DNA of 40,000 nucleotides from Bryobacterales bacterium (GCA_963744555.1 CAVUUB010000020.1:185086-225085), one strand, 5' to 3'; counted from the first letter of the stretch, positions 24,054 through 40,000 are shown. The notes: a model not told the origin generated them from the letters alone. Program-made: numbers and translations.

Positions 24054-24227
24054 TTATTTCAAAAAGGTGTTGTATACCCAGCGAACCAAATCTGCCAAGA
24101 GAATTATCATTCCGATAGACACTGCTGCCGTGATCACCTCGCGTCTCAACGCGCTAATGATTCGCTCAGGTAGGGCCTGGACATCTGCTCGCAGGGCTTT
24201 AATCTCTTCCAGGGATTCGTCAGGCAT
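24054..24227 (-). CDS. Possible small membrane protein (57 aa)
   Basis: MPDESLEEIKALRADVQALPERIISALRREVITAAVSIGMIILLADLVRWVYNTFLK*. It has a C-terminal TM helix and is below the ORF-track cut-off. Confidence 0.25.
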   Translation of the reverse strand: MPDESLEEIKALRADVQALPERIISALRREVITAAVSIGMIILLADLVRWVYNTFLK

Positions 24228-24251
24228 TGCCGGGGAATTTTATCACAACTG

Positions 24252-24291
24252 GCTAAGCATGCCCTCGCAATTCAGCACGGCCACTAGCGCC
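24252..24291. repeat. Direct repeat copy 1 (about 40 bp)
   Basis: GCTAAGCATGCCCTCGCAATTCAGCACGGCCACTAGCGCC compared with GCTAGCACGCCCTCGCTATCAGCACGGCCACTAGCGCC at 26307-26344. Confidence 0.8.
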
Positions 24292-24322
24292 GCGCGGCTG
24301 CCGCTTGCTCGTTCACAAAATT

Positions 24323-25033
24323 CTATTTCAGGAAGTGACCAGCAAGCCAGCCAACAACGCCACCGACAACCGCACCGATTGCCGCCGAGACCGCGTGTTT
24401 TGAAAAATCTTCTCGATTTCTAACCCAGAACGAAGGGGAGTTGAGTCTGGTTTCTAAACTCAGATAGTTGCCAATGCTGGCGACAGCCAAGATAGGGAAC
24501 CCTACGGTGGCTGCAATCCAACCAAGAAACTCAAACTGCAAAGACCATGAAACCGCCTCGTTCCGTGGTCCAGGCGCGGGAACTGGCGGACTTGTATTAA
24601 GATGGCGGCTCATAAAGACTACCAAGCCAATGACAGAAACCATCGCAAGAACAACAAATATCCAGCGAACGTACGGCCGTTGATAGTCGCTGAGAAAGTC
24701 TTTTATTCGAAAGAACAACGCATCAGCCTCGTTGGTAGCTTCTTCCGCCCGCAACTCGTTAAATACGAGAGTAGAAGGTGGGGACGTTTTCGACTGCTCC
24801 GACTTGTTCAGTACGAAATGCAAGCCCGGCTGTTCACCGTGAATTTCAAGATGGTCTATCCTAGGACCCTTTTGTGCCTTCATTTCGTCAAAGGACTCGT
24901 AGCGATACCGCTTGTCGGAAATCGTGACCCTAGCGCACTTGCTTTGAAACAGGTCAAGGAGTTGGTCGAGATCCTCCCGGTACATCTTGAGTTTCCTCAG
25001 TTGTGCGCTTTTAGGGTGTTTGATGGGTTCCAC
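24323..25033 (-). CDS. Hypothetical membrane protein (236 aa)
   Basis: A soluble N-terminal half is followed by three hydrophobic helices (WIFVVLAMVSVIGLVVF, LGWIAATVGFPILAVASI, AAIGAVVGGVVGWLAG). Confidence 0.5.
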   Translation of the reverse strand: MEPIKHPKSAQLRKLKMYREDLDQLLDLFQSKCARVTISDKRYRYESFDEMKAQKGPRIDHLEIHGEQPGLHFVLNKSEQSKTSPPSTLVFNELRAEEATNEADALFFRIKDFLSDYQRPYVRWIFVVLAMVSVIGLVVFMSRHLNTSPPVPAPGPRNEAVSWSLQFEFLGWIAATVGFPILAVASIGNYLSLETRLNSPSFWVRNREDFSKHAVSAAIGAVVGGVVGWLAGHFLK

Positions 25034-25350
25034 TGGCTGCCCCTTAACAACAATAGTTTGTCACGGCTCAGGACACTATTTCTTAGTGAACCAGCATGAT
25101 CGCCACCAATCCAATCGTCACGCCTGCGGATCAGTTGCAACCGGGTTCTTGGCCCCAACAGGAAAGAGCCGGTAGCCTTTGCCACTGCGCCCCCGTGCCG
25201 GGCCGTAACGCCCGGTGGCAACCTACTACGAACCATGCGCCCGGCGGCCCAACGGCAGCCGGTGTCCGGGGGAATTTTGGGGCAACGTGGCGGGGTCGGC
25301 GCGCCTATTGCCGATACTAACGCCATACGGCTACACTAGCCCTGGAAGGG

Positions 25351-25839
25351 ATGATTAAAATGAAACGGCTTTTCCGCTTAGGCTTATTGATCGTTGTGGT
25401 GTTTGCGCCTATAAGGGCCGATGACCCAATCAAGTTCTTTGGCGATGGGCATGATTGGCAAGAAATGGGAACAGCCTTCTCGAAAGCGATGTACATCGAC
25501 GGTTTTAAGCAAGGGCTATCATGTGCCGGGATGCAGTTGCACCATGAGCCCATCACGCTAGAGCAGATAATTGAAACATCAAAAGCGATTGGCGAAGATC
25601 AAACCACGCCGAACAAGCCGGTACCGCGTATCCAGATGGTGTTGGCTGTTGATTCCTTCTATAGCGATGTGAGGAATGTGAACATCGCCATACCCCTGGC
25701 GCTCCGCTGGGCCAAAGTGAAGCTTGATGGGGGGACGCCGGAAGATCTGGGTGCCTTTGCTGCCGTTTTACGGACCAATCACGAAGAGGTGAGTCAAAGT
25801 AGCCCCGCGCGCGTGCCGCAGGCCCGGTCAAATCTTTAG
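25351..25839 (+). CDS. Hypothetical secreted protein (162 aa)
   Basis: Signal-peptide-like N-terminus MIKMKRLFRLGLLIVVVFAPIRA. No family was recognised. Confidence 0.5.
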   Translation: MIKMKRLFRLGLLIVVVFAPIRADDPIKFFGDGHDWQEMGTAFSKAMYIDGFKQGLSCAGMQLHHEPITLEQIIETSKAIGEDQTTPNKPVPRIQMVLAVDSFYSDVRNVNIAIPLALRWAKVKLDGGTPEDLGAFAAVLRTNHEEVSQSSPARVPQARSNL

Positions 25840-26283
25840 CAATTCCGAGATGGTGTTCTGCGGCATGTTCGGCTGCAGGCCAAGAAATGCCGCAACAACG
25901 ACTTTCATTTCTTTGCTAATCGCCACGAAGTCCCACCTTTTCTCCGGAGGCGTACCCGCAATGCGTTGGGTCGTGAGATGATGCAGTTGCTTGTTTGCAC
26001 GCTTGCGCGCCTTTTCGAGAACAGGACTGATCGCTGGCCCCTTAGTGTTCCAATTCGCAACATAGTGTTCTGCGATCACATCATCTACCTTGGGGCGCAC
26101 AGGATAAAAGAATTCGATTAAGTTCCTGAGATGGAGTACGGTATCCTCGACCATGAGATTCTCCAGGAACTGGTCACCCCCCGGTTGTATTGCCCGCGCA
26201 AGAACGAACATCTGAACTTCATAGAAAAGATGCTCCTTGGCAAAATCGAAGAAGTTAACGGGCTGTGGCGACTTTGGCTTCAT
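25828..26283 (-). CDS. Hypothetical protein (151 aa)
   Basis: An intact ORF convergent with 25351..25839, overlapping it by 12 nt. No family was recognised with confidence. Confidence 0.5.
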   Translation of the reverse strand: MKPKSPQPVNFFDFAKEHLFYEVQMFVLARAIQPGGDQFLENLMVEDTVLHLRNLIEFFYPVRPKVDDVIAEHYVANWNTKGPAISPVLEKARKRANKQLHHLTTQRIAGTPPEKRWDFVAISKEMKVVVAAFLGLQPNMPQNTISELLKI

Positions 26284-26306
26284 GAATCAAATTGTAGCCC
26301 GGCCCC

Positions 26307-26344
26307 GCTAGCACGCCCTCGCTATCAGCACGGCCACTAGCGCC
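26307..26344. repeat. Direct repeat copy 2 (about 40 bp)
   Basis: See 24252-24291. The core GCCCTCGC(A/-)(A/T)(T/A)TCAGCACGGCCACTAGCGCC is shared. Confidence 0.8.
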
Positions 26345-26442
26345 AGCACCAACCCGGCGGCAGCATCCTCAGCCTAGACCAACCACCTACGCCAGCCCCG
26401 CCGGGCGTAGCGGGCCTGGAGCCAACGGTTAGATGGCAGGAT

Positions 26443-26937
26443 TCATAGTTGGTTGCTTTTCATCCGTTGGTGGTAAGTTACAGTGAGTCCAAGCCCCGGT
26501 ATGTCGTACAGGATGATCACTGTTTGTGGCAGCAGCCATTCCCAGGTTCGCTCTGGGAAGAGGCGACTGCCTTCTACCTTTACTGACGTCGGCTCGCCGT
26601 ACTTCTCACGAAGTCCCTGCAGAAAATTGATATTGGCGGGGGCGGAGTCTTTAGCATCTGTGAGGCTGATTTTGACGCTGCCCAGCCCGCCCGATTTGAA
26701 AATGAATTCAACGCGGTAGGTTATGGGTGAGGGTCCAATGGTTATATGGTCCAGACCAAAGAAATGGTTGACCGGGTTCCTGGGGTATGGATAAACCCGC
26801 GCCTCCGGAAAGGCTTCCCGGATCTGTGCTTCCGTCATTCCCCACTTGGCCTTGGTCCATCCACCTGGGTCATCCTGCGCGCCTAGACTAAAGCAGGCTA
26901 GGAACGCCACGATCAATTTGATGTTCACACTCGGCAC
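26443..26937 (-). CDS. Hypothetical secreted protein (164 aa)
   Basis: Signal peptide MPSVNIKLIVAFLACFSLGAQ. No family was recognised. Confidence 0.5.
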   Translation of the reverse strand: MPSVNIKLIVAFLACFSLGAQDDPGGWTKAKWGMTEAQIREAFPEARVYPYPRNPVNHFFGLDHITIGPSPITYRVEFIFKSGGLGSVKISLTDAKDSAPANINFLQGLREKYGEPTSVKVEGSRLFPERTWEWLLPQTVIILYDIPGLGLTVTYHQRMKSNQL

Positions 26938-27048
26938 CTGACCTTCGCCATCGACTCTTGTCGATTCGATCTTTAGCCCACAGGTGAACGCAAAAAGGGC
27001 CGGAAGCCTCGCGGCCCCGGCCCATCCAACTTTCGAGTTGGCTCCTAG

Positions 27049-27345
27049 CTACCGCACCTTGTACGTTCGCAGCCCGCCTTTCTCCTTCGATGATTCAACT
27101 TTGAAGCCGTGCAGGCGCCCCAGGTTGCTGATGAATCCTCACGCGGCATGCGTCTGGGTCCATCCAAACGCTTTCATGAGTGCGGGGACGGTGGTACCTT
27201 TGCGGAGCATGGCAATGGCGGCACGTCCTTAGGCTTCCTGGCCAATTTCCGGGGCTTGGTGGCCTTCTTTGCGGTACGCTTGGCCCTTTTGCCCTTCTTG
27301 CTGGTGGTAACCGCCGGGGGCGGCCTTTTCTGTGGTTTGTTCCAT
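27049..27345 (-). pseudogene. DUF3489-like gene, frameshifted and with an internal TGA
   Basis: The ATG at 27345 follows AGGAGGGCGG, and that frame stops after 38 aa. A second frame carries a Lys/Arg-rich segment (TSKKGKRAKRTAKKATKPRKLARK). A third frame reads AAIAMLRKGTTVPALMKAFGWTQTHAA*GFISNLGRLHGFKVESSKEKGGLRTYKVR*, which is the DUF3489 pattern. The TGA at 27139-27141 sits where that family has a conserved Arg (HSVRGF). Confidence 0.55.
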
Positions 27346-27422
27346 GTTGCCGCCCTCCTAATTGGCGGTGACACGATTCATCACTCAGAAGGCTTCAAGA
27401 TGCAAGTCGGAAGAATACCCTA
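27341..27422. repeat. Direct repeat copy 2 (about 82 bp)
   Basis: See 20529-20610. Confidence 0.85.
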
Positions 27423-27619
27423 CGGGATGGCAAGTATGCGAAACAATTGGTGATAAAATTGTTCTATTGGACGTCTTCTATTACCTCACTCAACCACCAA
27501 CGCAAAAGTCATGGGTTGATGTAGTCGGTATCTTTGCGCCCGTTGTCGCCACGATTGTCGCCATCGTCATCAGCCTTAGGGTTGCCAGCAAGTAAAACGA
27601 TATCCAAGAGCGACAATTC

Positions 27620-28036
27620 ATGAAGGAAGCCGAGATACAGGAGCGACAACTCAAAAAAGATTTGTTTGATCGTCGTTTTAACGTATACGCGGAAACTGGT
27701 GACTTTATCGATTACGTCCGTCGCAACGACGGCAAGACCAAGCTTAGCGGTCCTGAATACCTTCGTTTCCACGAAGTACTAGAGAAAGCGGAAATGCTCT
27801 TCCGCCCCGAAGTGCACAAGTATCTAATTGAAATCAGGGACGCCGCCGGAAACTTCTATGCCGACAAGTTCAAGGAAAACGAGGCCGCAGTTACTGGCAT
27901 GCATCAAGACGTGCTAGATCGCCTTAACGATGTGAGGAAGCGGCTATCCGTTCTATGGAAGCAACGAAATGATGTGTTCCGTCCTGAGTTGCATCTGGGC
28001 TCCGTTGAAAACAAGCCCAGTGTGCCTGGCAACTAG
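27620..28036 (+). CDS. Hypothetical protein (138 aa), possibly the distal part of a gene split by an in-frame TAA
   Basis: The ORF is in the same frame as 27362..27595, which ends with a TM helix (VGIFAPVVATIVAIVISL). A single TAA at 27593-27595 separates them. Confidence 0.45.
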   Translation: MKEAEIQERQLKKDLFDRRFNVYAETGDFIDYVRRNDGKTKLSGPEYLRFHEVLEKAEMLFRPEVHKYLIEIRDAAGNFYADKFKENEAAVTGMHQDVLDRLNDVRKRLSVLWKQRNDVFRPELHLGSVENKPSVPGN

Positions 28037-28122
28037 CGCAGCCTCGGAAAAGAAGAAAAGCCCCCGGCTACCGAACCAGGGGTATAGATCGATTGCTCTT
28101 TGCTCTAGGCTGCTCTTGGGGG

Positions 28123-28156
28123 CTCCTAACGCCACATCACTCCTAACGCCACATCA
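28123..28156. repeat. Perfect 17-bp tandem duplication in intergenic region
   Basis: CTCCTAACGCCACATCA occurs twice (28123-28139 and 28140-28156), upstream of the 28289 gene. Confidence 0.9.
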
Positions 28157-28288
28157 CCAAGATTCGCTCATGCTATACTTACGCCATCGTCGGCAGACTT
28201 GTTGATTGAGGTGTTTACACCTGGGGCAAGGCCCAAATCGATCTCAGCGCTCTGGCGGCGGCGATTAATAAGTTAGGAGTTAACTTCA

Positions 28289-28804
28289 ATGAGCACGAAC
28301 AAAGTCCCTCCGGGGGGCCAGAAAAAGGGGCCTCTTCCTGCCGAGAGGATTGTTTCTTCCTTTAAACAACTCGCCGTTTTCTCCACCGACCTCAATTCTG
28401 CCGTCGATGAACTCTGCGACAATATTTCTCCTCTTGACCGCGCTTTGAGCAAGCTTAACCTCGGAGTCTCAGCTTGGTACCAGATCGCGGGGCACGAAGA
28501 TGACGACATGACTTTCTGGAGCCGCGATATCGGGTACTCCAAAATCGGTAAGGACTGGCATATTGCCATCAGGAAAACTTCAGGCCATGAGCCTGACGTG
28601 TATCACGAGGAAGTTTGGCCCTTCGATGAGGCTCCTCGCTGGATGCAAATCGAAAGCGTCGGCAAGATTCCCGATCTTTTCGATGAGCTGATCAAGAGGA
28701 CCGAAGATACGATCAAGAAGATACGTGCCAAGACGATTGAGGCGCGCGATCTCGCCACCGCAATTAGCGGAGCGATATCTGCTCTTTCGCCGCAGGACCA
28801 ATAG
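28289..28804 (+). CDS. Hypothetical protein, paralog B of 20811..21329
   Basis: See the shared blocks listed for 20811..21329. Its orientation is opposite to paralog A. Confidence 0.6.
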   Translation: MSTNKVPPGGQKKGPLPAERIVSSFKQLAVFSTDLNSAVDELCDNISPLDRALSKLNLGVSAWYQIAGHEDDDMTFWSRDIGYSKIGKDWHIAIRKTSGHEPDVYHEEVWPFDEAPRWMQIESVGKIPDLFDELIKRTEDTIKKIRAKTIEARDLATAISGAISALSPQDQ

Positions 28805-28812
28805 TCCCGGAG

Positions 28813-29064
28813 ATGAATATCATGAAACTCTTCGTGTGTCTTGTGGCAATAGTTTTTATCGCTGCAATCGTGATGTATGCTCTCCGTTCCAAGGGGGATG
28901 TGAAAGCAGCGTTCAAGATTCCATTCGTGGAATTCTCATTGGAGACTAAGGACAAGAATTCGCCCTCCAAACCGACCGAGGCTAACCACAACCTGCTTGG
29001 ATCGCAACAAGATTCATCGGTAGGTATCTCTAGCCCACCTGGGCAGTCAGGTCGGAGACGCTAA
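28813..29064 (+). CDS. Small membrane protein (83 aa), paralog of 20609..20785
   Basis: An N-terminal TM helix (LFVCLVAIVFIAAIVMYAL) is followed by KAAFKIPFVEFSLETKDK. It lies 9 nt downstream of paralog B, the same gene order as the copy at 20.6-21.3 kb. Confidence 0.5.
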   Translation: MNIMKLFVCLVAIVFIAAIVMYALRSKGDVKAAFKIPFVEFSLETKDKNSPSKPTEANHNLLGSQQDSSVGISSPPGQSGRRR

Positions 29065-29215
29065 ACGGGCCGCGTCGGTCGGGGAAGTTCGCTCGTGTAG
29101 GCTGTGGGGACTTTTGTAGGGGAGATAGCCCCCAAAGAACCGACCCAGAATTGCGGTTATTGGCCGGAAACTAGCACTTGGCGTGTAGTTGGTACGCTAG
29201 GCCGCCTATTACGAA

Positions 29216-30754
29216 TCAGTTGCTGCGGCCTGCTGATCCTTCGGAAACGCCGACAAGCTCTGCTAGCTTCTGCCAATGGCGTGCATGAGGGAGATGCTTG
29301 CCTGACCGGATATCAACTGCATATGGCAGCGAGACGCCTAGTGCCAGAGCAATCGCAGAACAACTCAGGTTCTTCAGCAACGGTTGAATCCGAGTGACAT
29401 AAGTTTCTTTATTTAGCCATTCTGGCTGACTGGAGCAATCCCAAGCCTTTCTTGCGGCCATATGTTGCCGCATCGTTTCCGATTGACGCGCGAGGACGTT
29501 TGGACTATGAGCAAGCGCGCGGCCACCCTCCGCCGCTTTCAGCAGTTGCTTCGTCGACAGCTCGACACTGCAGTTTGCGCAATGGCTTCGTCCTGTCGGT
29601 ATCGATTTACCGCAGATGCCACAGACGCTCTCGGATTTTGGCGATGGCTTGGCGGGTGAAGTTGGTAGGCCACCTCTAGCCTCACGCTTTCGGCTCTGAG
29701 TTAATCGTGTTGCTGGAGCTCGCGGCCCAGTGGGCTTCGGTATTGCAGTCCAAAGAAGATGACTAATGCGTTCCGCGAAGGGACCAACTGCACTGCGCCA
29801 AGTTGAAGCCGTTTCTGACAATCGAATGGCAAATGATGCATTCAATCGACACGTGCCATCCCCCTTTTCGTAAAACCATTCTCGCTTCAGCGTTTCCCGT
29901 TGAATCCAATCGAGCACATAAGCGTCCACACGAGGGCGCACAGGCTCCATCAAATCACAGGCCAAGCTATCGCGAGCTTGGGTGTCAAAATGCAGAAACC
30001 CGAGTCCTGGGTCAAGACCTAACGCCGTTGCTGCAAGTCTAGCCTCGGATTCTAGTACGGTGTAAAGGTAGTTCAGCATTGTATTGAGGGGATTTGAAGC
30101 TAGACGAGCTCTACCTGATACCGGCGAATATCGGCTTTCGAAAATACGCCAATGATCAGGCGTCCGGCAGAGATCTTTCACAGGGAATTTGATAGGCAAA
30201 CCATTCCAGGCGGACCAATAAGCAGCGGCTGCCATCGATTCAACGACTCTGATGGATTCCATTGTCTTCGCGCTGACTAGCTCCTTCCGAAATCTTGCGA
30301 TACTATCGCCGACTGCCGAGTTGTTTAGCTCCTGGCGGGCGAGCTGCTCTTGATTTATGAGTTTCTGGCTGATAAGTTCACGAGCAATACCCACGCCCGC
30401 CTCGGACTTATAGGCGAGTGCCTGAGCCCGGCGTAGCCGAGCATCAGAGGATCGAACCGGGCCCGTCGTAGCGAGCACTGAACCATCCCGTTCAAGCATC
30501 ACAAAGGCTGCATCCTGATCGGCCAGCCAGCGAAGAGCGGCGAGGCTTACGTAACCATCGGCACCGATGACAACTAACCGGCGAAGACCATGTCCGACAC
30601 GCGGCAGTCGCGCATATAGGCGATCAGCGCCGATCCCATCCTCCAGAATCAGGTGACCACGATCCACGTGCACTCTTATGCCGTAGCCGAAAAGTGTGAT
30701 GACACCATGCCGTGGTGATGCAGACATTTGAGAACTGTTTGCTTCTTGCGTCAC
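29216..30754 (-). CDS. cas1: Cas1-family integrase (casposase-like, no CRISPR context) with C-terminal zinc-ribbon/HTH-like extension
   Basis: A 512-aa ORF whose GTG start overlaps the upstream stop (GTGA). The N-terminal beta domain is VITLFGYGIRVHVDRGHLILEDG...LVVIGADGYVSLAALRWL. The catalytic domain has the Cas1 signature residues in order: E172 (VVESMAAAAYW), SNPLNTMLNYLY, H255 (GLGFLHFD), and D267/E270 (SLACDLMEPVRPRVD). The C-terminal extension carries CGICGK-x9-HCANC. Confidence 0.85.
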   Translation of the reverse strand: MTQEANSSQMSASPRHGVITLFGYGIRVHVDRGHLILEDGIGADRLYARLPRVGHGLRRLVVIGADGYVSLAALRWLADQDAAFVMLERDGSVLATTGPVRSSDARLRRAQALAYKSEAGVGIARELISQKLINQEQLARQELNNSAVGDSIARFRKELVSAKTMESIRVVESMAAAAYWSAWNGLPIKFPVKDLCRTPDHWRIFESRYSPVSGRARLASNPLNTMLNYLYTVLESEARLAATALGLDPGLGFLHFDTQARDSLACDLMEPVRPRVDAYVLDWIQRETLKREWFYEKGDGTCRLNASFAIRLSETASTWRSAVGPFAERISHLLWTAIPKPTGPRAPATRLTQSRKREARGGLPTSPAKPSPKSESVCGICGKSIPTGRSHCANCSVELSTKQLLKAAEGGRALAHSPNVLARQSETMRQHMAARKAWDCSSQPEWLNKETYVTRIQPLLKNLSCSAIALALGVSLPYAVDIRSGKHLPHARHWQKLAELVGVSEGSAGRSN

Positions 30755-31545
30755 TTGATCTGCCTCCGCCTTCTTCGCTTCACCTTCGCCGCCCGCGATG
30801 CCTCAAAAATCTCTTCTGGCCTAATGGAGCCTACAAGGTTTACCGCTGTCCGCGTTTCAACTCCAAGGACCGCTCCCGCGAGTGCCCGCGACAAGAACCA
30901 AATTTGCTTCAACCGCGTCGATGGTCGCTTGGATCGTGGATACTTAGGATGCGTCCTCGCAGTAATAATTTCAGATGCGTATTCGGTGAGGTAGGAAGGG
31001 AGTAAGCTCCCGAAGGAAATTGGCCAATTCGGGACTTGTACCTCTTTTATGACTTCCGGCGCAATCTCGAAACTCTGCATGACGAATGCATCTTTGCAGA
31101 GTTCGCGCACTTGGTCTGGAGTTTTTGCCTTCAGCAGCTCTTCAAAAATGCCAGGCTCACCTGGAACTCCTAACTGCTTGTCTGCCTTCTCTGCGACTAT
31201 GCACCTCTCGCTCTCGTGCATCATTACAAGCTCATCCGCCTCCCTTCGTTTGAGCCACTCATGTATTTGTGATGATTCCAAATGCCCTTCGCGAACCTTC
31301 TGATCCGCTTCGCTCCTGAGCCGTGCTCGATCGTTGCCACTGAGCTGCTTCTTTTCCAATTCCGCGATGGATTTAGCGAACGTTTTTCGGTCGAACCATA
31401 ACCGGGTGGTGCCTTCGGCGATGTGCCTGAGTTCCCAGTAGAACTGCTCAGCGAACATATAAAGCGTTCCAGCATCGGTTTTTCGTGGCCGTCCAGGTCC
31501 CATAATTAAAGGGCAAAAACTTTTACAGTACCTTGCCTTAACCAA
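30751..31545 (-). CDS. Hypothetical protein translationally coupled to cas1
   Basis: A 264-aa ORF whose stop overlaps the cas1 start by 4 nt. The possible true start is ATG 31503 (MGPGRPRKTD, AT-hook-like). It has a basic C-terminus KVKRRRRRQIK. No family was recognised. Confidence 0.55.
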   Translation of the reverse strand: MVKARYCKSFCPLIMGPGRPRKTDAGTLYMFAEQFYWELRHIAEGTTRLWFDRKTFAKSIAELEKKQLSGNDRARLRSEADQKVREGHLESSQIHEWLKRREADELVMMHESERCIVAEKADKQLGVPGEPGIFEELLKAKTPDQVRELCKDAFVMQSFEIAPEVIKEVQVPNWPISFGSLLPSYLTEYASEIITARTHPKYPRSKRPSTRLKQIWFLSRALAGAVLGVETRTAVNLVGSIRPEEIFEASRAAKVKRRRRRQIK

Positions 31546-31600
31546 TATTATGTAAGATTCTGGAATTGTACTGCAGAGGCAATATTGGAGGTGCTAGGTG
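31541..31600. promoter_or_regulatory. AT-rich divergent control region between the cas1 and polB operons
   Basis: Only about 50-95 bp separate the divergent starts. An inverted 8-mer CCAATATT (31542-31549) / AATATTGG (31581-31588) is present. GGAGGTG (31587-31593) is a Shine-Dalgarno sequence for ATG 31601. Confidence 0.4.
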
Positions 31601-31807
31601 ATGCAGGTAGAAACAATAGCCTTTAATAGACGGGAGACCGCTGACGCGCTTCGTGTCAGTTTACGGACAGTGGATTACTTGCTCGCTCAGGGCAAGCTAC
31701 GAGGTACTCGAATTGGTCGTCGCGTTGTTATCCCGCGAACTGAGGTTGAAGACCTGCTACGCCAGGGCCTGGGTACAGTGCGGGAACGAATGAATCGCGA
31801 GTCGTAA
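31598..31807 (+). CDS. Excisionase-family (MerR-like) helix-turn-helix DNA-binding protein
   Basis: RRETADALRVSLRTVDYLLAQGKLRGTRIGRRVVIPRTEVEDLL is the classic excisionase/HTH_17 pattern. Confidence 0.7.
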   Translation: MMQVETIAFNRRETADALRVSLRTVDYLLAQGKLRGTRIGRRVVIPRTEVEDLLRQGLGTVRERMNRES

Positions 31808-31819
31808 CTTAAGGAAACC

Positions 31820-32317
31820 ATGCCGCGCCGCAATGCCAAACCGCGCACCAAACGCGAGGTAGAAGCCCGCGAAAGGGCGCTCGCAGCCGTCGCGCGAATG
31901 CGTCGTGAAAAGTTATCGCTGAGTGCGGCAGCCAAGGCTGAAGGAACGCATATTCGTACGGTCCGGCGTTACGCTGGCACCGCGCTTGAGCGACCAGGGC
32001 GACGTGGGCTATTTCGGGCAAAGGCGTCCGACCGACTTAGTCGTTCACTAAACTTCCCAACACCTCTTGGGCAACAGGTCGTTGTCGTACGAAGCTCAAG
32101 CACCGCATCGGCAATCGGCGAGTATCTCAACGCTGTTCGAAAATATCTGAACACCGGCGATACATTGCCACTCATGCCATTCCGCAACAAAAGCTTCCGG
32201 TCGGCTGATGGTGTCAGACACGAATTCACAACCGATCCAGGGTTGCTTAACAGGCTTGGAGATGCCGGAATCTTGGAAATCGAAGGACTATACCGCGCGG
32301 TTCACGGGGCGCAATGA
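31820..32317 (+). CDS. Hypothetical protein with N-terminal HTH-like segment
   Basis: A 165-aa ORF. LSLSAAAKAEGTHIRTVRRYAG looks like an HTH. AAGGA lies upstream of the ATG, and the stop overlaps the next start (ATGA). Confidence 0.5.
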   Translation: MPRRNAKPRTKREVEARERALAAVARMRREKLSLSAAAKAEGTHIRTVRRYAGTALERPGRRGLFRAKASDRLSRSLNFPTPLGQQVVVVRSSSTASAIGEYLNAVRKYLNTGDTLPLMPFRNKSFRSADGVRHEFTTDPGLLNRLGDAGILEIEGLYRAVHGAQ

Positions 32318-32724
32318 CCGATAGCGATCCAAATCGTACTGCTCGCCGAGAGATGACACGGCTCTCACGATTCGGCGAAGGTCCGCTTATCTGCTTTTTA
32401 TGCGGTTACACAGACCCGGTTGCGCTGATTCCGGTAACGGCTGGGTGGCTTAAAGCCACCGGTGTTTCGAAGACGCTGTTCCAAGGTGATCATGTCGTAG
32501 GCAGGGCACATGATCCTGACTTTGTTGTCCCCATATGCCGTAACTGTCACGCCGAAGTTACGGAAGACAGGCTCCGCGCAGGCATCAGCATGAGGCCAGC
32601 ACTTGATCAGAACACGCGCGAGGCGCTGCGGCTACAGAGTCTTGCACTGTTTCACGAGAGGGAGGCTGCAGCGTTGCGGCGATGGGCAGCGGAAAAATTA
32701 TCAAACGAGGAATCAAATGACTGA
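32314..32724 (+). CDS. HNH endonuclease-like protein
   Basis: CFLCG ... GDHVVGRAHDPDFVVPICRNCH gives CxxC, the catalytic His (DH), Asn (RN) and CxxCH in HNH order. The stop overlaps the polB start (ATGACTGA). Confidence 0.65.
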   Translation: MTDSDPNRTARREMTRLSRFGEGPLICFLCGYTDPVALIPVTAGWLKATGVSKTLFQGDHVVGRAHDPDFVVPICRNCHAEVTEDRLRAGISMRPALDQNTREALRLQSLALFHEREAAALRRWAAEKLSNEESND

Positions 32725-35700
32725 AAGTACACCTATATTCTTGCGAACACATACAGAGTACAAAAAGAAGAAAAAACGTAGTCGTGGCGCAAAGTTGGCT
32801 AAAAATGTTGTGGACCAAACCGATTTGGAGCAACGAGGAGAGGGGCCGATATGGCCGAAGTACGCCCTGGTCATCGACAGCGAGACGACCACGGATGAGC
32901 GCCAGACGTTAACGTTTGCCTTTTACCGACTGTGTCGGCTTGAGGCAAATAAGGAGTATGCCTGTGTCGAGGAAGGATTAATATATCCGGACGATCTGCG
33001 TCTGAACGATCCAGATGGGATGAAGATCCTTGAGGATTACGCCAGCATGCACACCTCCGAAACAAAACCTGGCAAACCCGTCCAATTGCAATTGAGGAGT
33101 CGATCCAAGGTCATGCAAAAGGTTTTTTGGCCAAATGCCTATGATCCGCCAAGCGGCTTTGGCGCTCTCGTTGTGGGCTTTAATCTCGCCTTTGATTTAA
33201 CCAGGCTTGCCATAGACTGTCGGCCCGCTCGTCGGCTAAAAGAAATGTGGAGTTTTCTGATGTCGCAGGACCGTCATCCGGAGACGGGCCAGTGCCGCGA
33301 GGACCCTTTTCGACCGAGGATCATTATCACGCCCAAAGATAGCAAGGCGGCTTTCATTCGCTTTGCAGGCGTCAACATCCGAAATAAGAAAACTGGTCGA
33401 AAATTTACGCAGTACAAGGAAGGCCGCTTTCTCGACCTACGAACACTAGGCTGGGCCTTGCGGAATGAGTCCTTCAGCTTGCGTTCTGCAGCGAAGGAGT
33501 TCACAGACAAGGAAAAGGATGATCACGACCCAACCGGGAAAATTACTCTAGACGAAATCAACTATTGTCGCAACGACGTGCGAGTTACCGTAGCCATCCT
33601 GAATGGCATGAAGAACGAGTTTGATCTCCATGATATCGATCTCAAGCCTGATCGCGCCCTCTCTCCAGCATCGATCGCCAAATCGTATCTCAAGCAGATG
33701 GGCATAATTCCACCGCTCAAGAAATTCGATCTCTCGCCCGAGGTGCTCGGTGCCGCAATGCAGGCGTATTATGGAGGCCGCGCCGAGTGTCGTATTCGCC
33801 ACACCGATGTCCCAATCGTTTATACGGATTTCTTATCGCAGTACCCCACCGTAAATTCCCTCATGGGCTTGTGGCAGATGCTCACAGCTGAACGTTTGCG
33901 AATGGAGGATGCGACCGACGACGTACGAAAGTTGCTTGCCAATGTGACAACTGAGTCGGTGTTCGATCCGGACTTTTGGAAACAGCTAACGTTCTTTGCG
34001 CTCGTGCAACCAGCAGGCGATATCTTGCCAGTACGCACCGAATACAACGGAGAGACTACCAATATAGGTATCAATCCACTTACATCGAAAAGACCGGTCT
34101 GGTATGCCGGGCCTGATCTTGTCGCTGCTACCCTTCTCAGCCCGACTCATAAGGCTCCCGATATCGTTCGGGCTTTGCGAGTATTGCCGGAAGGCCAACA
34201 GGCGAGCCTACAGCCAGTGACTCTGCGCAGCAGCGTGAACGTCGATCCAAGAAAGGATGACTTCTTCCAGAAAATTATCGAGGCTCGGGCCCGCGTTAAG
34301 AAGGATCAAAGTCTTCCAGAATCTGAGCGAGATGCACTCAGTTACTTTTTGAAAATCCTCGCGAATTCTGGATCGTATGGCCTTTTCGTTGAAATTAATC
34401 CTGAGCGCGTTGGCAAGAATGTTCGAGCGAACGTCAAAGTTTATTCTGGCGAAACCTACTTTGAAACAACGTCACCGATTGTTGAGCCGCCTGGTGTTTG
34501 GTATTGTCCAGTTTTCGCGTCCCTGATTACCGCTGCTGGTCGGTTGCTATTGGCACTGCTTGAACGATCGGTTACGGATAAGGGCGGAAGCCACTTGCTC
34601 TGCGATACTGACTCGCTCGCTGTCGTAGCCTCCGAAGCCGGTGGACTGGTGCCTTGTGTCGGCGGAGCGCATCGTCTCGGCCATGGGCGCGAGGCAGTCA
34701 AGGCCCTGTCATGGTCCGCGGTGCAGGAAATCGTCAACAAATTCGAGAAGCTCAACCCTTATGATCGAGATGCGGTACCGAGTTCGATTCTCAAACTAGA
34801 AGATGTGAACTTTTGCGACGGCGCGCAACGCGAACTCTATGGTTACGCCATCGCGGCAAAGCGCTATGCGCTTTTCAAGCTGGCGACAGACTCCATCCAT
34901 GTTGAAACAGCGAAAGCCCACGGTTTAGGGTTTCTGTTTCCGCCCGATGAGGGATTCGACAAAGAAGCGGATGCGCCGGTTTGGGTTGTTGAGGCCTGGG
35001 ACTGGATTGTACGCGGAGCGCTCGGACTACCTCGGAATGACCCGCCCTGGTTCGATCTACCTGCAATGATGCGGTTCAAAATCACGACCCGTCAAGTTCT
35101 GAAAGTGCTTCAGGATCGTCAAGTGAACTTGCCATACCAAGATCGGGTCAAGCCGTTTAATTTTATTTTGAGCCCGATGATTGATGACTTCGGCGGACTG
35201 CCGATTGGGTGCAAGGCTAATCATTTCACTCTTATCACTCCGTACACGAAGGACGTTTCACGATGGTACGGTCTCAAGTACTTCAACGTCCATGATGATG
35301 AAAAGCAGTATCGCTTAGGCTGCCCCGGAAAACGCCTGCCGTCGCAGGCGGAACCGCAGAGGTTGGAGGATGTCGTGAGCCGATATCGCTGGCACCCGGA
35401 AGCCAAGAGCCTCGCGCCAGATGGGAGTGAATGCGGTCGAAAAACTCAAGGATTGCTCCAGCGCACGCCAGTGACTGCGATCGAACAGCCGCGCTACATC
35501 GGCAAGGAGACAGATCGACGTTGGGAACAGGGCGAAGACATTAGCATGCTTGATCCCAAGCTAGTTGAATATCGTCCGAATGAAACCGCCCGGCTCGTGT
35601 GTGATCCGGAATTGCAGCGCGTTGTGGGAGGCATTTCTATTCGGAAACTGGCCAAAGCTGCAGACGTGACTGAAAATACCGTGAAGGCAGCCAAGCGAGG

Positions 35701-35800
35701 AGACCGGCTGCAAAGATCAACGGTGGAGAAGCTGAGGAAGGGTCTGAATCAATTCTTATCTCCAAGACCGATCAAGGCCGTTCGGAAGAAGGCTCGCTGA
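32717..35800 (+). CDS. polB: Family B DNA polymerase with 3'-5' exonuclease domain and long C-terminal extension ending in an HTH
   Basis: The probable start is ATG 32717 (MTESTPIF...), giving 1027 aa. Motifs in canonical order are Exo I LVIDSETTTD, Exo II VVGFNLAFDLTRL, Exo III INYCRNDVRVT, YxGG (AYYGGRAE), Pol A VYTDFLSQYPT, Pol B KILANSGSYG, Pol C LLCDTDSL and KxY (AAKRYALF). About 300 aa follow KxY, ending in ISIRKLAKAADVTENTVKAAKRG (HTH-like). Confidence 0.9.
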   Translation: MTESTPIFLRTHTEYKKKKKRSRGAKLAKNVVDQTDLEQRGEGPIWPKYALVIDSETTTDERQTLTFAFYRLCRLEANKEYACVEEGLIYPDDLRLNDPDGMKILEDYASMHTSETKPGKPVQLQLRSRSKVMQKVFWPNAYDPPSGFGALVVGFNLAFDLTRLAIDCRPARRLKEMWSFLMSQDRHPETGQCREDPFRPRIIITPKDSKAAFIRFAGVNIRNKKTGRKFTQYKEGRFLDLRTLGWALRNESFSLRSAAKEFTDKEKDDHDPTGKITLDEINYCRNDVRVTVAILNGMKNEFDLHDIDLKPDRALSPASIAKSYLKQMGIIPPLKKFDLSPEVLGAAMQAYYGGRAECRIRHTDVPIVYTDFLSQYPTVNSLMGLWQMLTAERLRMEDATDDVRKLLANVTTESVFDPDFWKQLTFFALVQPAGDILPVRTEYNGETTNIGINPLTSKRPVWYAGPDLVAATLLSPTHKAPDIVRALRVLPEGQQASLQPVTLRSSVNVDPRKDDFFQKIIEARARVKKDQSLPESERDALSYFLKILANSGSYGLFVEINPERVGKNVRANVKVYSGETYFETTSPIVEPPGVWYCPVFASLITAAGRLLLALLERSVTDKGGSHLLCDTDSLAVVASEAGGLVPCVGGAHRLGHGREAVKALSWSAVQEIVNKFEKLNPYDRDAVPSSILKLEDVNFCDGAQRELYGYAIAAKRYALFKLATDSIHVETAKAHGLGFLFPPDEGFDKEADAPVWVVEAWDWIVRGALGLPRNDPPWFDLPAMMRFKITTRQVLKVLQDRQVNLPYQDRVKPFNFILSPMIDDFGGLPIGCKANHFTLITPYTKDVSRWYGLKYFNVHDDEKQYRLGCPGKRLPSQAEPQRLEDVVSRYRWHPEAKSLAPDGSECGRKTQGLLQRTPVTAIEQPRYIGKETDRRWEQGEDISMLDPKLVEYRPNETARLVCDPELQRVVGGISIRKLAKAADVTENTVKAAKRGDRLQRSTVEKLRKGLNQFLSPRPIKAVRKKAR

Positions 35801-37991
35801 GCAGCGTCATTCCAATGGAAACAATAGACTGAGGAGATTTTCCCGCCGCAATGGACCGCTCCCGGTCAACTTCCAAAGCTCCGGTTTCGGGGTCGATTTT
35901 GTACGAAGATACTTTTCCGGAGGAAAAACCCGTTACTAAAATATATTTACCGGAAGGATCGATCGTGATTCCAACCGGCCCGTTTTCGGTCGCGTACGGC
36001 GAGCCGGTGATTTCAGCTATTCTCCCCGTCGATGAGTTGATCTTGAAAGCCGAGATGTCGTTCGAAACCAAATTAGCTACATAAAGGTAACGGCCTTGCG
36101 GATCAATAGCCGCTCCAATGGAGTTAGTACCTGCGCGGGCTGGCTTGGCAAGCGATCGTAACGCACCAGTATTCTGATCAATTGTGTACGCCGATACGGT
36201 GCATCCCGCGCCCGCGCCCTTTCCGTATGTGCCTTGGCAGACGTCGGTACGTACACCATAATTGATCACATACGCAAATTTCCCGGAAGGATGGAGGACG
36301 ATGCAGCGGGGCCGCAGTCCAGTGTCGAAGGGCGAACCAGAAATTTGAGCAAGCGAGCCATCACGCGGATCAATCCGGAACGCCGAGATGGTTGCGTCAT
36401 CCTGGTTGGCTACATAAGCAAATCTACCGTTGTTGTCCACTGTAATCCAGAATGGATGATATCCTGCCGAGAACGGCGAACCTGGAATTTCTAGGAGAGT
36501 CCCTGTCACTATGTCCCTCGCGTAAGCCGAAACATCATTGGAGATGACGTTAGTGACATAAAGGAACTTTCCGGCTGGGTCCTGCGCCATGCCAGTCGGA
36601 CCGAAACCCGCTTTGTAGGGAGAACCTGAAATCTCCGCTAGCGCTCCCGTGTCGTGATCGACACGATATGCCGACACATTACATCCATCACCGCAAGCGC
36701 GATCGGAAGTGCCTCGGTTGGCCACATAAACGAACGACCCTGACTCGTCAACGATCACGTAATATGGCCGGTCTTTCGTCGCGTATGGCGATCCTGCAAT
36801 AGCAGATAGCGCGCCGTCTCTATCGATGGCATAGGCCGAAATGTCTCGGGAATCGTAGTTTACTGCGTAGGCAAACGATGCAATGGCTTTCGCCGCTTCT
36901 CCGGCCCCGAACAGTAGCCTACTGTTGTCGTATGGATCGGTAAGATTCGCGTGCCCGTCAGCGAACAAAGCAGAGCTCCTGAAGTTGGTTGGTGTTCCGG
37001 CATAGACCTCGGCAGCATTTGTGGGTTCGATCGTCATCCGGTCATATTCCGAGCTGAGTTGGGTGTACAGAGCAGCTGACCACCGCCAGCGCAGATTGAT
37101 TTTCGGATCGTCAGTCGCCAACGAAGCGTACCAGGTCACGGGACGGATCCTTTCCGGCAACCCGCTACTGGGGACGTGAAACGTCATACCAGTCAGAAAA
37201 GCCTCTGCGGACTGATTCGACGGAACCTTGGTCACCCATCGGCCGCGCGCGGGATCAAATCTCGTGCTCGCGGCATGAAACTCCGGCGAGAAACTGACAG
37301 TAGCGTCTGGAACGCGCAGGTAATAAAGTTCGCCGCCAGCTATGAATCGCACGATCGATCGATTGAGCGATATCGTAACAGGTTTCGGCGACATGGCCTG
37401 TGGCTGAACGAGGCTGCTGAACCAGACGTACCTTCCGCCAGGAATCTTGGTGTCGTTGAACCGGCCTGTAACATAAAGCGGTCCAACGTCATCATTGTTC
37501 TCTTTGGAAGCAGCCGATCTTGCAGAGCGATGCAAAATACCGAAAAACAGAAGCGCCAATGATATGAGCACCGCTGCGAGAATGGCTGCGATCTGTCTTT
37601 TCGACCAACCGTGTGCGGCCCTTTTCTGTTCTCCGTCGAGTTTCTGTCCGTTGGAAGCCGCTTCCACCTGCGCGATGAAGCGATAACCAACGCGAGGCAA
37701 AGTTTCGATATAGCGCGGGTTCTCAGCCGAATCGCGCAGAGCTTCCCGCAGTTTATTCATGTTGAGATTCAGATTGCGATCGAAATCGACGTGAGCGTCG
37801 GGCCAAAGCCGAGAACATAACTGGTCGCGCTGGACTACCTCGCCAGCATGCTCCAACAAGATCTTGAGGAGGCTGAACGGGAGTCCCGAGAGACGAATAC
37901 GAATGCCATTCTTCCTAAGCTCTCTGGAACGTAAGTCGGCTTCGAATTCGCCGAAGTGGATTTTTCCGGATGACTCATTCGCCTCAGGCAT
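35772..37991 (-). CDS. CadC/OmpR-type winged-helix transcriptional regulator fused to TM segment and lactonase-type beta-propeller repeats
   Basis: The N-terminus FGEFEADLRSRELRKNGIRIRLSGLPFSLLKILLEHAGEVVQRDQL...ETLPRVGYRF is a trans_reg_C domain. A TM helix (IAAILAAVLISLALLFFGIL) follows. Repeated motifs YV(A/T)N...ND(I/V)SA(Y/F) and GP are typical of 7-bladed lactonase propellers. Confidence 0.8.
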   Translation of the reverse strand: MPEANESSGKIHFGEFEADLRSRELRKNGIRIRLSGLPFSLLKILLEHAGEVVQRDQLCSRLWPDAHVDFDRNLNLNMNKLREALRDSAENPRYIETLPRVGYRFIAQVEAASNGQKLDGEQKRAAHGWSKRQIAAILAAVLISLALLFFGILHRSARSAASKENNDDVGPLYVTGRFNDTKIPGGRYVWFSSLVQPQAMSPKPVTISLNRSIVRFIAGGELYYLRVPDATVSFSPEFHAASTRFDPARGRWVTKVPSNQSAEAFLTGMTFHVPSSGLPERIRPVTWYASLATDDPKINLRWRWSAALYTQLSSEYDRMTIEPTNAAEVYAGTPTNFRSSALFADGHANLTDPYDNSRLLFGAGEAAKAIASFAYAVNYDSRDISAYAIDRDGALSAIAGSPYATKDRPYYVIVDESGSFVYVANRGTSDRACGDGCNVSAYRVDHDTGALAEISGSPYKAGFGPTGMAQDPAGKFLYVTNVISNDVSAYARDIVTGTLLEIPGSPFSAGYHPFWITVDNNGRFAYVANQDDATISAFRIDPRDGSLAQISGSPFDTGLRPRCIVLHPSGKFAYVINYGVRTDVCQGTYGKGAGAGCTVSAYTIDQNTGALRSLAKPARAGTNSIGAAIDPQGRYLYVANLVSNDISAFKINSSTGRIAEITGSPYATENGPVGITIDPSGKYILVTGFSSGKVSSYKIDPETGALEVDRERSIAAGKSPQSIVSIGMTLLSEPSSERP

Positions 37992-38097: not shown

Positions 38098-39111
38098 GCT
38101 GGATATCCCCTTGACTCAGCTTGCCCCCATATGTAGTGGTGGCCCGCTAACCGTTCTCACTATCGACTCATAGGTGTTCGGCGGCGTATTCACGGCCTGC
38201 TGCACGAGCCGAAAGAAGAGCTTCCCTCGGCTCTTGGATTTCCGGCGATTGAAGCGAAATGTGAATTCATCCAGATAATAAGGCAGGTAGTAATAAGCTA
38301 CCCCGCCTTGGTGTGTACCGAGCAGCCAGCGCTTCAACAGCGACACGACCCGATGAACCCGAGGCATCAACTTGGAAGCTTCTTTCCTTCGATTCCCCAA
38401 CCTCGTGATCTCCCGTTGATAGCCCTGCTTCTCCAAGCCTGCGTATCCTTGCCAGCCGTCCGTGTGGATCACGCTTCCGGGTTCGATGCAATCCTCCACG
38501 AACGGATGGAGATTGGCCGCCGAGCAATCCCTGATCATCCGCATCCGGATGCGCCCAATGCCCGCTCCATCGGCCTGGGCAGCGATCACAACCCACGCCT
38601 TTCGCGCGGTTTGCCTTCCCCAAGCTCCCTCCTCCAATCCGCCCACCATGGTCTCGTCCATTTCCACCCAACCGCTCAACCGATCCCGGTCCGGCCGGAC
38701 CATTGCCCGTCTCAGTTTGTGTAGCCAGGTCCAGGCGGTCTCATAACTAGCCAAGCCGAGCACCCGCTGCAAACCCAGGGCGCTCGCCCCGTTCTTCTGG
38801 CTCGTCACATACCACATCGCCCGAAACCACATCACCAGCGGTTTCCGGGTGTCCTGGAAAATGGTACCCGCGGTGGCCGACACTTGGCGGCGGCAGCCAC
38901 AGCACTGGAACAAAGTGTCACGAACCACAACCGCCTTCTTGCCGTGACAGCACGGGCATTGAAATCCCTCGGGCCATCGCAGGCTGACTAGGTAGGCCCG
39001 GCAGTTTTCTTCCTTCGCGAAACGACTCTCGAACTCCTGAACGGTGCGCGGGTAATCCTCCATTCCTGAAATCTATATGTTGGGGTCGGCTGAGTCAAGG
39101 GGATATCCAGT
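38098..39111 (-). mobile_element. IS1595-family insertion sequence, complete
   Basis: Perfect 22-bp terminal inverted repeats CTGGATATCCCCTTGACTCAGC (38099-38120) and GCTGAGTCAAGGGGATATCCAG (39089-39110). They are flanked by an 8-bp direct repeat TGTATTGA (38090-38097 and 39112-39119). A single transposase ORF lies inside. Confidence 0.85.
38116..39063 (-). CDS. IS1595-family transposase
   Basis: N-terminal zinc-ribbon CPCCHGK...CCGCRRQ, then TIFQDTRKPLVMWFRAMWYVTSQKNGASALGLQR and a DDE region (VEMDETMVGG ... IHTDGWQGY). This is the pattern of ISXO2-like/IS1595 transposases. Confidence 0.85.
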   Translation of the reverse strand: MEDYPRTVQEFESRFAKEENCRAYLVSLRWPEGFQCPCCHGKKAVVVRDTLFQCCGCRRQVSATAGTIFQDTRKPLVMWFRAMWYVTSQKNGASALGLQRVLGLASYETAWTWLHKLRRAMVRPDRDRLSGWVEMDETMVGGLEEGAWGRQTARKAWVVIAAQADGAGIGRIRMRMIRDCSAANLHPFVEDCIEPGSVIHTDGWQGYAGLEKQGYQREITRLGNRRKEASKLMPRVHRVVSLLKRWLLGTHQGGVAYYYLPYYLDEFTFRFNRRKSKSRGKLFFRLVQQAVNTPPNTYESIVRTVSGPPLHMGAS

Positions 39112-39257
39112 TGTATTGACTTGTTACTACGCTGGGCATTTCATACAGAGGAACGGGCGTATGCTGCCAATGATACGGGGCAACTGAAATCGTCGGACCG
39201 CAAATGGGGATCGTCGCCGCCTGGAAGGGAGTATATGATTCCCAGAATGGACACGAT

Positions 39258-40000
39258 ATGAAGAACTCCCGACCGCGCCGTGTTTGCAAAAATGTACTGC
39301 CGTTGCTTGTTCTAACGCAGGTCTGCTACGGACAAAACACACGTTATCAATTCGTTGATCTTAGTAACGGGTACTCCGGGGCGTTCACACCGCTGCCCAT
39401 CGGTGTCAACAATTTGGGTCAAGCAGTGGTGGAATTTAATGGGGGGCCGGATGGAACGGCGTCGGGTGTGGCGGTCTTTAGCCCGCCATACCAAGCACCT
39501 ATGTTTATCCCGCCTCTAGCGGGAGACACTGCGACAGCTGGTGGGGGCATCAGTGATGCGGGTGTTGTCGGCTGTTCTTACTCCCCTAGCGTAACCTTCC
39601 CCAATGTGACGCCCATTCTCCACCCATTTATATTCTCACTGTTAACAGGAACGCAGCCGCTGCCTCTGCTGCCCGGTTATCGTGGGGCCTGTGCAATTGC
39701 AATCAGCAAGAATGGCACAATTTTGGGAGCGGCAATGGATGCTCAGGGTTCCAATGCTCTTACTTTTTTCGTCTATACAGCGGATCACAAGCCAGGTTCA
39801 ATTTTGGCGCTGCCTGGAAGTTCTCCAGCCCGGCGGCAATAAACGATTCCGGCCAGGTTACGGGGGACACAGGCGTGTTTGATCCCCAGGCTCGCCTTCT
39901 GGTGTCGAAGTACGCCACGCGTTCCTTTATTCGCAAGGTCAATCGACGGATCTTGGGACGCTCTCGTGGGATCCTACGCTATACACACTTGGCCTCGCGC
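39258..40000 (+). CDS. HAF-repeat-like secreted protein, apparent frameshift near 39825-39840; continues beyond window
   Basis: Signal peptide MKNSRPRRVCKNVLPLLVLTQVCYGQ. Repeats GVNNLGQAVVEF, ISDAGVVGCSY and ISKNGTILGAAMD are present. The ORF stops at 39842 but another frame continues ...SSPAAINDSGQVTGDTG... to the window end. Confidence 0.5.

Follow-up and report, generated by a model that had tools for sequence, protein, structure and literature searches.

A probable tandem casposon array in a Bryobacterales genome and the putative promoter targets of its acidobacterial relatives

A 40,000 nt stretch of the genome of a Bryobacterales bacterium (GCA_963744555.1, CAVUUB010000020.1:185086-225085; hereafter the window) carries a cas1 gene back to back with an operon for a DNA polymerase of family B (PolB), which raises the question of whether this Cas1 serves a CRISPR system, another kind of mobile element or a casposon and, in the last case, where the element ends and what sequence it enters. 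The machinery of CRISPR adaptation is believed to descend from casposons. The window very probably contains a tandem array of two casposon-type transposons, named elements A and B, which share a single target site lying downstream of a host gene for a glyoxalase; the genome has its nearest relatives exclusively among the Acidobacteriota (Terriglobia). From the similarity of its Cas1, its domain architecture and the order of its genes, element B is with high probability an autonomous casposon of the bacterial family 3. An earlier sequence-only reading had proposed a casposon-like element at 29216-35800; this proposal was borne out by the match of Cas1 to casposase references and to the casposase structure 6OPM, by the pairing of PolB with Cas1 at 76 of 82 related loci, by the terminal inverted repeats (TIRs) and 14-bp duplications of these relatives, and by a terminus found 5.9 kb from the cas1 stop codon. 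The interval itself is the casposon core and not the whole element, which starts at 23321 and ends past the window.

Cas1, PolB and their place among casposons

The core of element B consists of the following genes.

29216..30754, minus strand: casposase Cas1, 512 aa; Cas1 domain at about aa 17-335, zinc ribbon C378/C381/C392/C395, C-terminal helix-turn-helix (HTH)
30751..31545, minus strand: cas1-coupled gene, 264 aa from TTG (235 aa in the public gene call); GTGA overlap with the cas1 start
31598..31807, plus strand: excisionase-type HTH protein (HTH_17), first gene of the operon; Pfam E 5.4e-10, TIGR01764 E 1.3e-9
31820..32317, plus strand: conserved casposon HTH protein, 165 aa; weak HTH_23/DUF977 hits
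32314..32724, plus strand: predicted divergent HNH nuclease, 136 aa; CxxC...DH...CxxCH motifs
32717..35800, plus strand: PolB, 1027 aa from ATG; 3'-5' exonuclease motifs, motif C CDTDS, weak C-terminal Cro-like HTH

The cas1 open reading frame (ORF) is intact, as first reported, and the residues E172, H255, D267 and E270 are invariant when the window Cas1 is aligned with 31 homologs; in the same 32 sequences the four cysteines of the zinc ribbon are invariant and the terminal HTH largely so. The protein matches the Pfam Cas_Cas1 profile (E 4.5e-45) and the generic NCBIfam model TIGR00287 (E 1.2e-37), while it lies far under the cut-off of all subtype-specific CRISPR Cas1 models. Its top solved structure, both by sequence and by fold (AlphaFold model, mean pLDDT 76), is the Methanosarcina mazei casposase 6OPM. 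BLASTP comparison with the Cas1 reference alignment of Krupovic et al. (2014; Additional file 2, PMC4046053) returned the five family 3 (bacterial) casposases as the five best matches: AceAut-C1 (206 bits, 44% identity), Saccharopolyspora spinosa (201 bits), NitAL212-C1 (161 bits, 34% identity), StrAlb-C1 (161 bits) and HenMar-C1 (128 bits). Family 2, with the archaeal AciBoo-C1/MetMaz-C1 type, scored 86-116 bits at 26-29% identity, family 1 scored 68-72 bits, and CRISPR Cas1 proteins 69 bits or less. In a neighbor-joining (NJ) tree, a check which the sequence-only reading had called for, the window Cas1 and its acidobacterial relatives (bootstrap of the group 100%) are nested within family 3, away from CRISPR Cas1, with no support values recovered for the deep nodes. 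A repeat-spacer array is absent from the 40-kb window and no other cas gene was found among the window ORFs scanned, in agreement with what had been seen by eye.

The divergent four-gene operon, with its ATGA and ATGACTGA overlaps, is arranged as originally described, and a promoter-like site precedes it (31522-31551). PolB passes the Pfam DNA_pol_B_2 model (E 5.6e-8; 32.5 bits vs a curated cut-off of 25.8), so that profile searches support the assignment of both enzymes, and the motifs Exo I-III, YxGG, A, B, C (CDTDS) and KxY are kept across 50 full-length homologs. The PolB_CDTDS group includes the polymerase of the A. boonei casposon (PMC7544198). Family 3 casposons have a PolB of the kind seen in families 2 and 3, unlike the protein-primed one of family 1; it is often fused to an HTH, and they have HNH and HTH genes in common with family 2. 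The 165-aa HTH protein has tblastn matches at the same position in 50 of the 82 loci (labelled L001 and so on) that form our comparison set, and the HNH protein is found at the equivalent position in 29. The HNH assignment stands as far as its motifs go, which are present; the Pfam HNH score is below threshold.

The best-matching reference element, AceAut-C1, is also bacterial, with a Cas1 core 44% identical to that of the window, and its Cas1 likewise carries a domain that binds zinc (ZBD) as well as an HTH, both C-terminal (Krupovic et al., 2014; PMC4046053). The supplement of the same paper lists an HTH protein, a divergent HNH protein and PolB-HTH in that order, which is the putative HTH-HNH-PolB-HTH order of the window, and AceAut-C1 is also intergenic, with TIRs and a 15-bp duplication. 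It differs from the window in its host phylum, its 602-nt terminal repeats, its length of 20 kb and its cargo, and no promoter target was reported for it. The experimentally characterized family 2 elements (AciBoo-C1 of A. boonei and MetMaz-C1 of M. mazei) share with the window family a Cas1-HTH casposase, PolB-HTH, HNH and two HTH proteins (PolB-HTH and HNH being putative in the window), as well as repeats of the type GGGATATAGG...AAAAAA, 14-15 bp duplications, site-specific insertion and tandem arrays at one site; they differ in having archaeal hosts, in targeting tRNA 3' ends or other intergenic sites, and in a Cas1 only 26-29% identical. Since AceAut-C1 has the same Cas1-ZBD-HTH architecture and gene order, and family 2 also has PolB-HTH, the divergent layout and the extra domains of Cas1 and PolB, previously considered unusual, are typical of family 2 and 3 casposons.

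The cas1-coupled ORF gave no match to Pfam, NCBIfam or PADLOC. Its slot is nearly always filled (66 loci), by at least five mutually unrelated protein families (hhalign probabilities 21% or lower); this led us to reject the gene as a conserved component and to regard it as the occupant of a variable slot.

Ends of the relatives and structure of the array

A scan of one genome per species, made with an alignment as the query (a single Cas1 sequence gave no match), identified 337 species-level genome loci with a relative, so that casposons can no longer be said to occur in only a few bacteria, as had been assumed. The best 80 of these loci are all from Acidobacteriota, mostly Terriglobia, and the insertions lie between genes, in putative promoter regions; a bacterial host and intergenic insertion are traits of family 3. 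Cas1 identity among the listed genome loci is 55-62%, and some genomes carry two copies. A search of 5.8 billion proteins returned full-length matches of approximately 505-530 aa and roughly 60% identity from soil metagenomes; clusters at 50% identity gave 1100 representatives at E <=1e-30, of which the best 150 listed (E <=3e-77) were mostly near full length. Where PolB adjoins Cas1 in the comparison set the arrangement is mostly divergent, as in the window; in L052, L075 and L071 HTH-HNH-PolB lies directly upstream of cas1 on the same strand.

Comparison of each locus with itself showed strong inverted repeats of 33-175 nt flanking most of the modules, mostly 95-100% identical, and delimiting elements mostly of 12-19.6 kb. 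A stricter scan yielded 31 complete Cas1 and PolB elements of 7.6-17.7 kb, 30 of which have perfect 14-nt direct repeats at their ends. The repeats of the relatives start with GGGGTA or GGGATAG and have an A-rich tract about 20 nt in, the same GGGrTA...A-tract design as in the published repeats of MetMaz-C1, MetLum-C1 and NitAL212-C1 (PMC4046053). By every criterion that can be tested on sequence the relatives are casposons. NitAL212-C1 (Nitrosomonas sp. AL212, family 3) resembles the window family further in its 14-bp duplication and in a nested IS1595 of its own, and its repeat, GGGGTATGTTAAC...CCCAAACGCC, starts with GGGGTAT as does the element B repeat, GGGGTATACAATAGCG...; it differs in that the zinc-binding domain of its Cas1, 34% identical to that of the window, is N-terminal and that its duplication, AGCCGGTACTGCCC, does not end in TTGAC.

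Termini of this kind divide the left part of the island in the window into the following segments.

19874..19887, plus strand: T_left target-site copy (TGGGCCCGCTTGAC); its -35-like TTGAC end abuts the first terminus and fits the ..gtTTGAC family consensus
19888..23306: element A, 3419 bp; TIRs of about 112 nt (19888-20000, 23195-23306); without Cas1 and PolB
23307..23320, plus strand: T_mid target-site copy (TTCGCACGCTTGAC), common to both tandem elements
23321..23374, plus strand: element B Cas1-side terminal repeat (GGGGTATACAATAGCGCCCCCTGTTTTTGCCCCACCCC...)
23375..29215: element B Cas1-side arm; cargo ORFs include 24323-25033, 25351-25839, 25828-26283, 26443-26937, 27620-28036 and 28289-28804

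Near base 19900 the GC content drops from about 0.60 to about 0.53, and it remains low through to the end of the window, which confirms the AT-richer island noted earlier. The junctions read ...TGGGCCCGCTTGAC / GGGGTAAGAGAGAGG... (19888) ...CTCTCTCTTACCCT (23306) / TTCGCACGCTTGAC / GGGGTATACAATAGCGCCCCCTG... (23321), with casposon termini at 19888, 23306 and 23321 and spacers of 14 nt, each ending in TTGAC; T_left and T_mid are identical at 11 of 14 positions. Junctions of the T_mid type, in which a terminus is followed by 14 nt ending in TTGAC and then by another terminus, recur in L001 and in the right flanks of several loci.

The left terminus of element A (GGGGTAAGAGAGAGG) is a family-type end, and the same repeat type also ends the Cas1-bearing element of L001 (92% over 51 nt). 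The four ORFs of element A encode one weak DUF3592 protein and three proteins of no assigned function, and the ORF at 20811-21329 is paralogous to the element B ORF at 28289-28804 (39% identity, E 2e-35). With casposon ends and none of the enzymes, element A is probably a non-autonomous "mini-casposon" which was moved in trans. A 62-nt direct repeat (85% identical) also occurs in both elements, at 20550-20611 in element A and at 27361-27422 in the Cas1-side arm of element B.

Element B runs from 23321 past base 40000 and is therefore at least 16.7 kb long; its 5.9-kb Cas1-side arm falls inside the family range of approximately 1-9 kb. An exact 21-mer of its terminus was found on three soil metagenome contigs, each time right after ...TTGAC and with 55-59 nt conserved. 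These three termini came from scanning metagenomes with the element B repeat, which gave no full partner element.

The closest relative, L001, has a Cas1 87% identical to that of the window and a flanking DUF1028 gene 85% identical in DNA, and follows the same plan as the window: a mini-element, 14 nt ending in GCGCTTGAC and then a Cas1-bearing element, both with the repeat type of element A. The 1.9-kb mini-element of L001 (8001-9890) carries a histidine-kinase gene (HisKA/HATPase_c) and is flanked by the near-identical 14-mers AACGAGCGCTTGAC and AACCCGCGCTTGAC. This layout points to turnover at a related site, and indicates that ends such as those of element A belong to a lineage which encodes Cas1. 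The cargo of L001 at 2306-6733 comprises an AAA_15/AAA_21 ATPase and a DUF4145 protein, resembling a defence pair, and an IS66 transposase.

In L017 a full casposon (4283-18656, duplication CTTTCTGGTTTGAC) is nested within outer casposon ends at 4045 and 18893 (duplication GTCAAACCCGGGGA), and these outer ends total only about 475 bp and resemble a miniature inverted-repeat transposable element (MITE), with little beyond the terminal repeats. A single element fills all of the 11.9-kb contig of L073 (1-11949), its 98-nt inverted repeats lying at position 1 and at 11837-11934; either the assembly broke where the ends are repeated, or the contig is a linear copy that exists free.

Target sites and promoters

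Of 36 loci whose ends were inspected by hand, 32 have a duplicated segment that finishes in TTGAC (TTGTC twice) with a terminal repeat immediately next to it, on the PolB side in 14 loci and on the Cas1 side in 18. When the sites are restored, all 32 match TTGAC(C)-N16-18-TAnnnT, vs 4.2% of 2727 further TTGAC sites from these loci. Approximately 25-330 nt downstream lie genes such as valS (five genomes), a DUF4932/TPR gene (seven), thrS, tig, nuoB, a thiolase gene and a rhomboid gene, with at least 20 different downstream host genes among the 32 loci. Read in this way, the insertion point is the downstream edge of the predicted -35 box in promoters of the sigma-70 type. Since this box is part of the duplicated 14 bases, the promoter would be rebuilt in front of the host gene, and a rebuilt promoter could be hit again; at several loci the next terminal repeat does follow straight after the 14 nt. 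On balance we favour the view that acidobacterial family 3 casposons home to promoters, with the casposase reading the -35 TTGAC (probably together with the adjacent spacer) of housekeeping genes, the 14-bp stagger rebuilding the promoter, and the reusable site giving rise to tandem arrays which include mini-casposons moved in trans.

The four remaining loci (L036, L077, L061, and L014) have end direct repeats which do not end in TTGAC, and L036 has GTCAA just outside the 14-mer; these are possibly exceptions to the target rule or the result of shifted cuts. The 14-mers preceding termini of the element B type (L083 4402-4415; L084 and L085 at the TIR2 junction) are palindrome-like (GTCAATCTCTTGAC and GTCAAGCGATTGAC, GTCAA-N4-TTGAC), which hints at two-fold symmetric target recognition. 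Two other explanations of the sites were tried and rejected. Transfer RNA genes or known RNAs do not account for the targets: ARAGORN found one tRNA in 32 loci and Rfam no RNA in the six loci scanned, and the sole tRNA (L025) is 96 nt from the terminus, on the side away from the promoter. Nor does the TTGAC form an inward-reading promoter with the A-tract of the repeat, as that tract is also present in archaeal casposon repeats and TAnnnT does not fit at the right spacing.

By analogy with archaeal casposases, the casposase would bind the GGGGTA-type terminal repeats and join the 3' ends at two target positions 14 bp apart; gap repair would then duplicate the 14 bp, and PolB would copy the element. 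One copy of the -35 box would stay before the host gene, and reuse of the site would yield tandem arrays, as the junctions suggest. More speculatively, the conserved TTGAC could be read by the casposase, possibly via its HTH, and the HNH and HTH proteins might have a role in excision or regulation.

The duplications published for casposons of families 2 and 3 have other ends than TTGAC (PMC4046053), and bacterial casposons have been described in the literature only as intergenic (PMC4779613). In the literature searched, outside of which many subscription journals lie, no paper ties casposons to Acidobacteria or to a TTGAC target; both promoter targeting and abundance in the Acidobacteriota thus appear to be undescribed before. 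Described casposons number a few dozen (54 reference Cas1 sequences in a 2023 study), experimental work has been almost all on two archaeal elements, and the bacterial ones have been called a handful (PMC4779613). If the promoter reading is correct, the Acidobacteriota would hold the largest known casposon reservoir, with relatives in at least 337 species-level genomes, and it would be the first for which a bacterial target rule is defined. What is new here beyond the original finding is how large the acidobacterial clade is, the strictness of the -35 target and the tandem array with its probable non-autonomous partner, and all three need checks. Being large and diverse, with clean ends and a simple target rule, this bacterial clade could serve as a bacterial model for casposase target choice, and possibly as the source of a site-specific integrase which spares the promoter it targets.

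CRISPR Cas1-Cas2 integrates with a fixed stagger beside a recognized flanking sequence, the leader-repeat junction. The casposon target rule would be a natural parallel to this recognition beside the duplicated repeat of CRISPR arrays. The two systems share the Cas1 fold and the catalytic residues; unlike a CRISPR locus the window has no Cas2, array or effectors, the proteins are distant in sequence, and the DNA which is integrated is the element itself.

Alternative readings and remaining features of the window

Several points weigh against reading the window as an array with an autonomous casposon. The inverted partner repeat of element B and its right target duplication are absent from the window (none in 29000-40000 for either repeat type), so that this copy may be incomplete; its right end would lie outside the window. 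Exact-protein look-ups with Cas1, the glyoxalase, a 739-aa regulator and a 212-aa ORF matched no public record and did not recover this end, while the exact PolB and 165-aa HTH protein sequences are also present on two public contigs. An IS1595-family insertion sequence is inserted in the PolB-side arm, and the duplication around element A is imperfect. The 136-aa protein scores E 0.14 with Pfam HNH, so that its naming is motif-based, and the C-terminal HTH of PolB (E 0.014) is also below the Pfam threshold, though both agree with the motifs and with the AceAut-C1 gene order. To these are added the deep NJ nodes without support values, and the fact that each enzymatic step is assigned by homology to archaeal systems. 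The search of related genomes proposed by the sequence-only reading defined the ends in the relatives and found no empty site or excision product; mobility is deduced from the number of copies, the variety of locations and the perfect duplications seen in relatives, and from the different array content of L001. What can be read from the DNA are the gene content and catalytic motifs, the TIRs and 14-bp duplications of the relatives, the putative promoter rule, the tandem arrays, and elements without enzymes that have the same ends.

Immobility of this particular copy is the live alternative. A dead relic, with genes still open but movement lost because, for instance, the right end is gone or damaged, would explain the absence of a right terminal repeat in the 4.2 kb after PolB, the IS1595 in that arm, the decay of the neighbouring duplication to 11 of 14 positions, and cargo ORFs which may be degraded and for which the search of related loci and families gave no homologs. 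We nevertheless regard a relic as unlikely, since neither Cas1 nor PolB is truncated and both keep all their catalytic motifs, the exact PolB protein occurs on a second public contig, and the PolB-side arms of the relatives (1.6-5.3 kb) plus the 1-kb insertion sequence place the expected right end just past base 40000. It is very improbable that the Cas1 and PolB pair is a domesticated host system, for example of defence or repair, which is vertically inherited. The core is well conserved across the Terriglobia and under purifying selection, as such a system would be, but its relatives lie before at least 20 different host genes in 32 loci, occur as multiple diverged copies per genome, and have perfect duplications, together with repeats up to 175 nt long that are 100% identical, which speak of recent insertion. 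The module is thus not fixed and syntenic across the clade, the outcome which had been named in advance as fatal to the casposon proposal.

About equally hard to credit is that the island is another PolB-carrying mobile element (a pipolin, linear plasmid or provirus) with Cas1 as mere cargo. The Pfam match of PolB is to an "organellar and viral" family, and the island has a lower GC content and many ORFs without a database match; however, scans of the window found no gene for a recombinase of the tyrosine or serine type, a capsid or a terminal protein, motif C (CDTDS) is that of the casposon-linked group, and the family's termini are inverted repeats of casposon type, accompanied by 14-bp duplications, and not att sites at tRNA genes. 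Pipolins, with their piPolB, tyrosine recombinase and tRNA att repeats, differ from the window in that it contains neither a recombinase of this kind nor a tRNA. Least probable of all, to the point of being negligible, is a CRISPR-associated Cas1 with its array and Cas2 outside the window. Public annotations do name the homologs "CRISPR-associated endonuclease Cas1" and the generic TIGR00287 model is passed, but against this stand the subtype-specific models far below their cut-offs, CRISPR references at no more than 69 bits vs 206 for a casposase, 40 kb without an array or another cas gene, and PolB as the constant neighbour (76 of 82 loci). Under the casposon reading many "CRISPR-associated Cas1" annotations in soil metagenomes would be transposases, which would affect surveys that use cas1 as a CRISPR marker.

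The PolB-side arm of element B continues after the core with the following features.

35772..37991, minus strand: probable cargo, 739 aa; Pfam OmpR-type winged-helix (Trans_reg_C) and lactonase-type beta-propeller; GC 0.534
38099..39110, minus strand: IS1595-family insertion sequence with 38-nt inverted repeats and Pfam hits to a DDE transposase; nested in the PolB-side arm
39111..40000: PolB-side arm, continued, GC 0.542; right terminal repeat not reached

The 739-aa protein has weak partial tblastn matches in two related loci only, neither of which adjoins PolB. For the cargo ORFs of the Cas1-side arm there was no Pfam or PADLOC match, and no tblastn match across the 82 related loci. PADLOC found no credible defence cargo in the window, the sole match being a weak ZorA-like one (E 0.0017). 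In the host region, LigD-type end-joining genes (3'-phosphoesterase domain, ATP-dependent ligase) at 9308-10971 are ordinary and have no bearing on the casposon. Cas1 had been taken for the only integrase-type gene of the island, which was mistaken given the DDE transposase at 38099-39110. This insertion sequence stands out by its GC content (0.585 vs 0.53 around it), and an identical copy of its transposase is found in L086 (10001-10948), in a region resembling a conjugative element (TrwB/TrwC genes); because of this identical copy on another contig, IS1595 appears to be active in this community.

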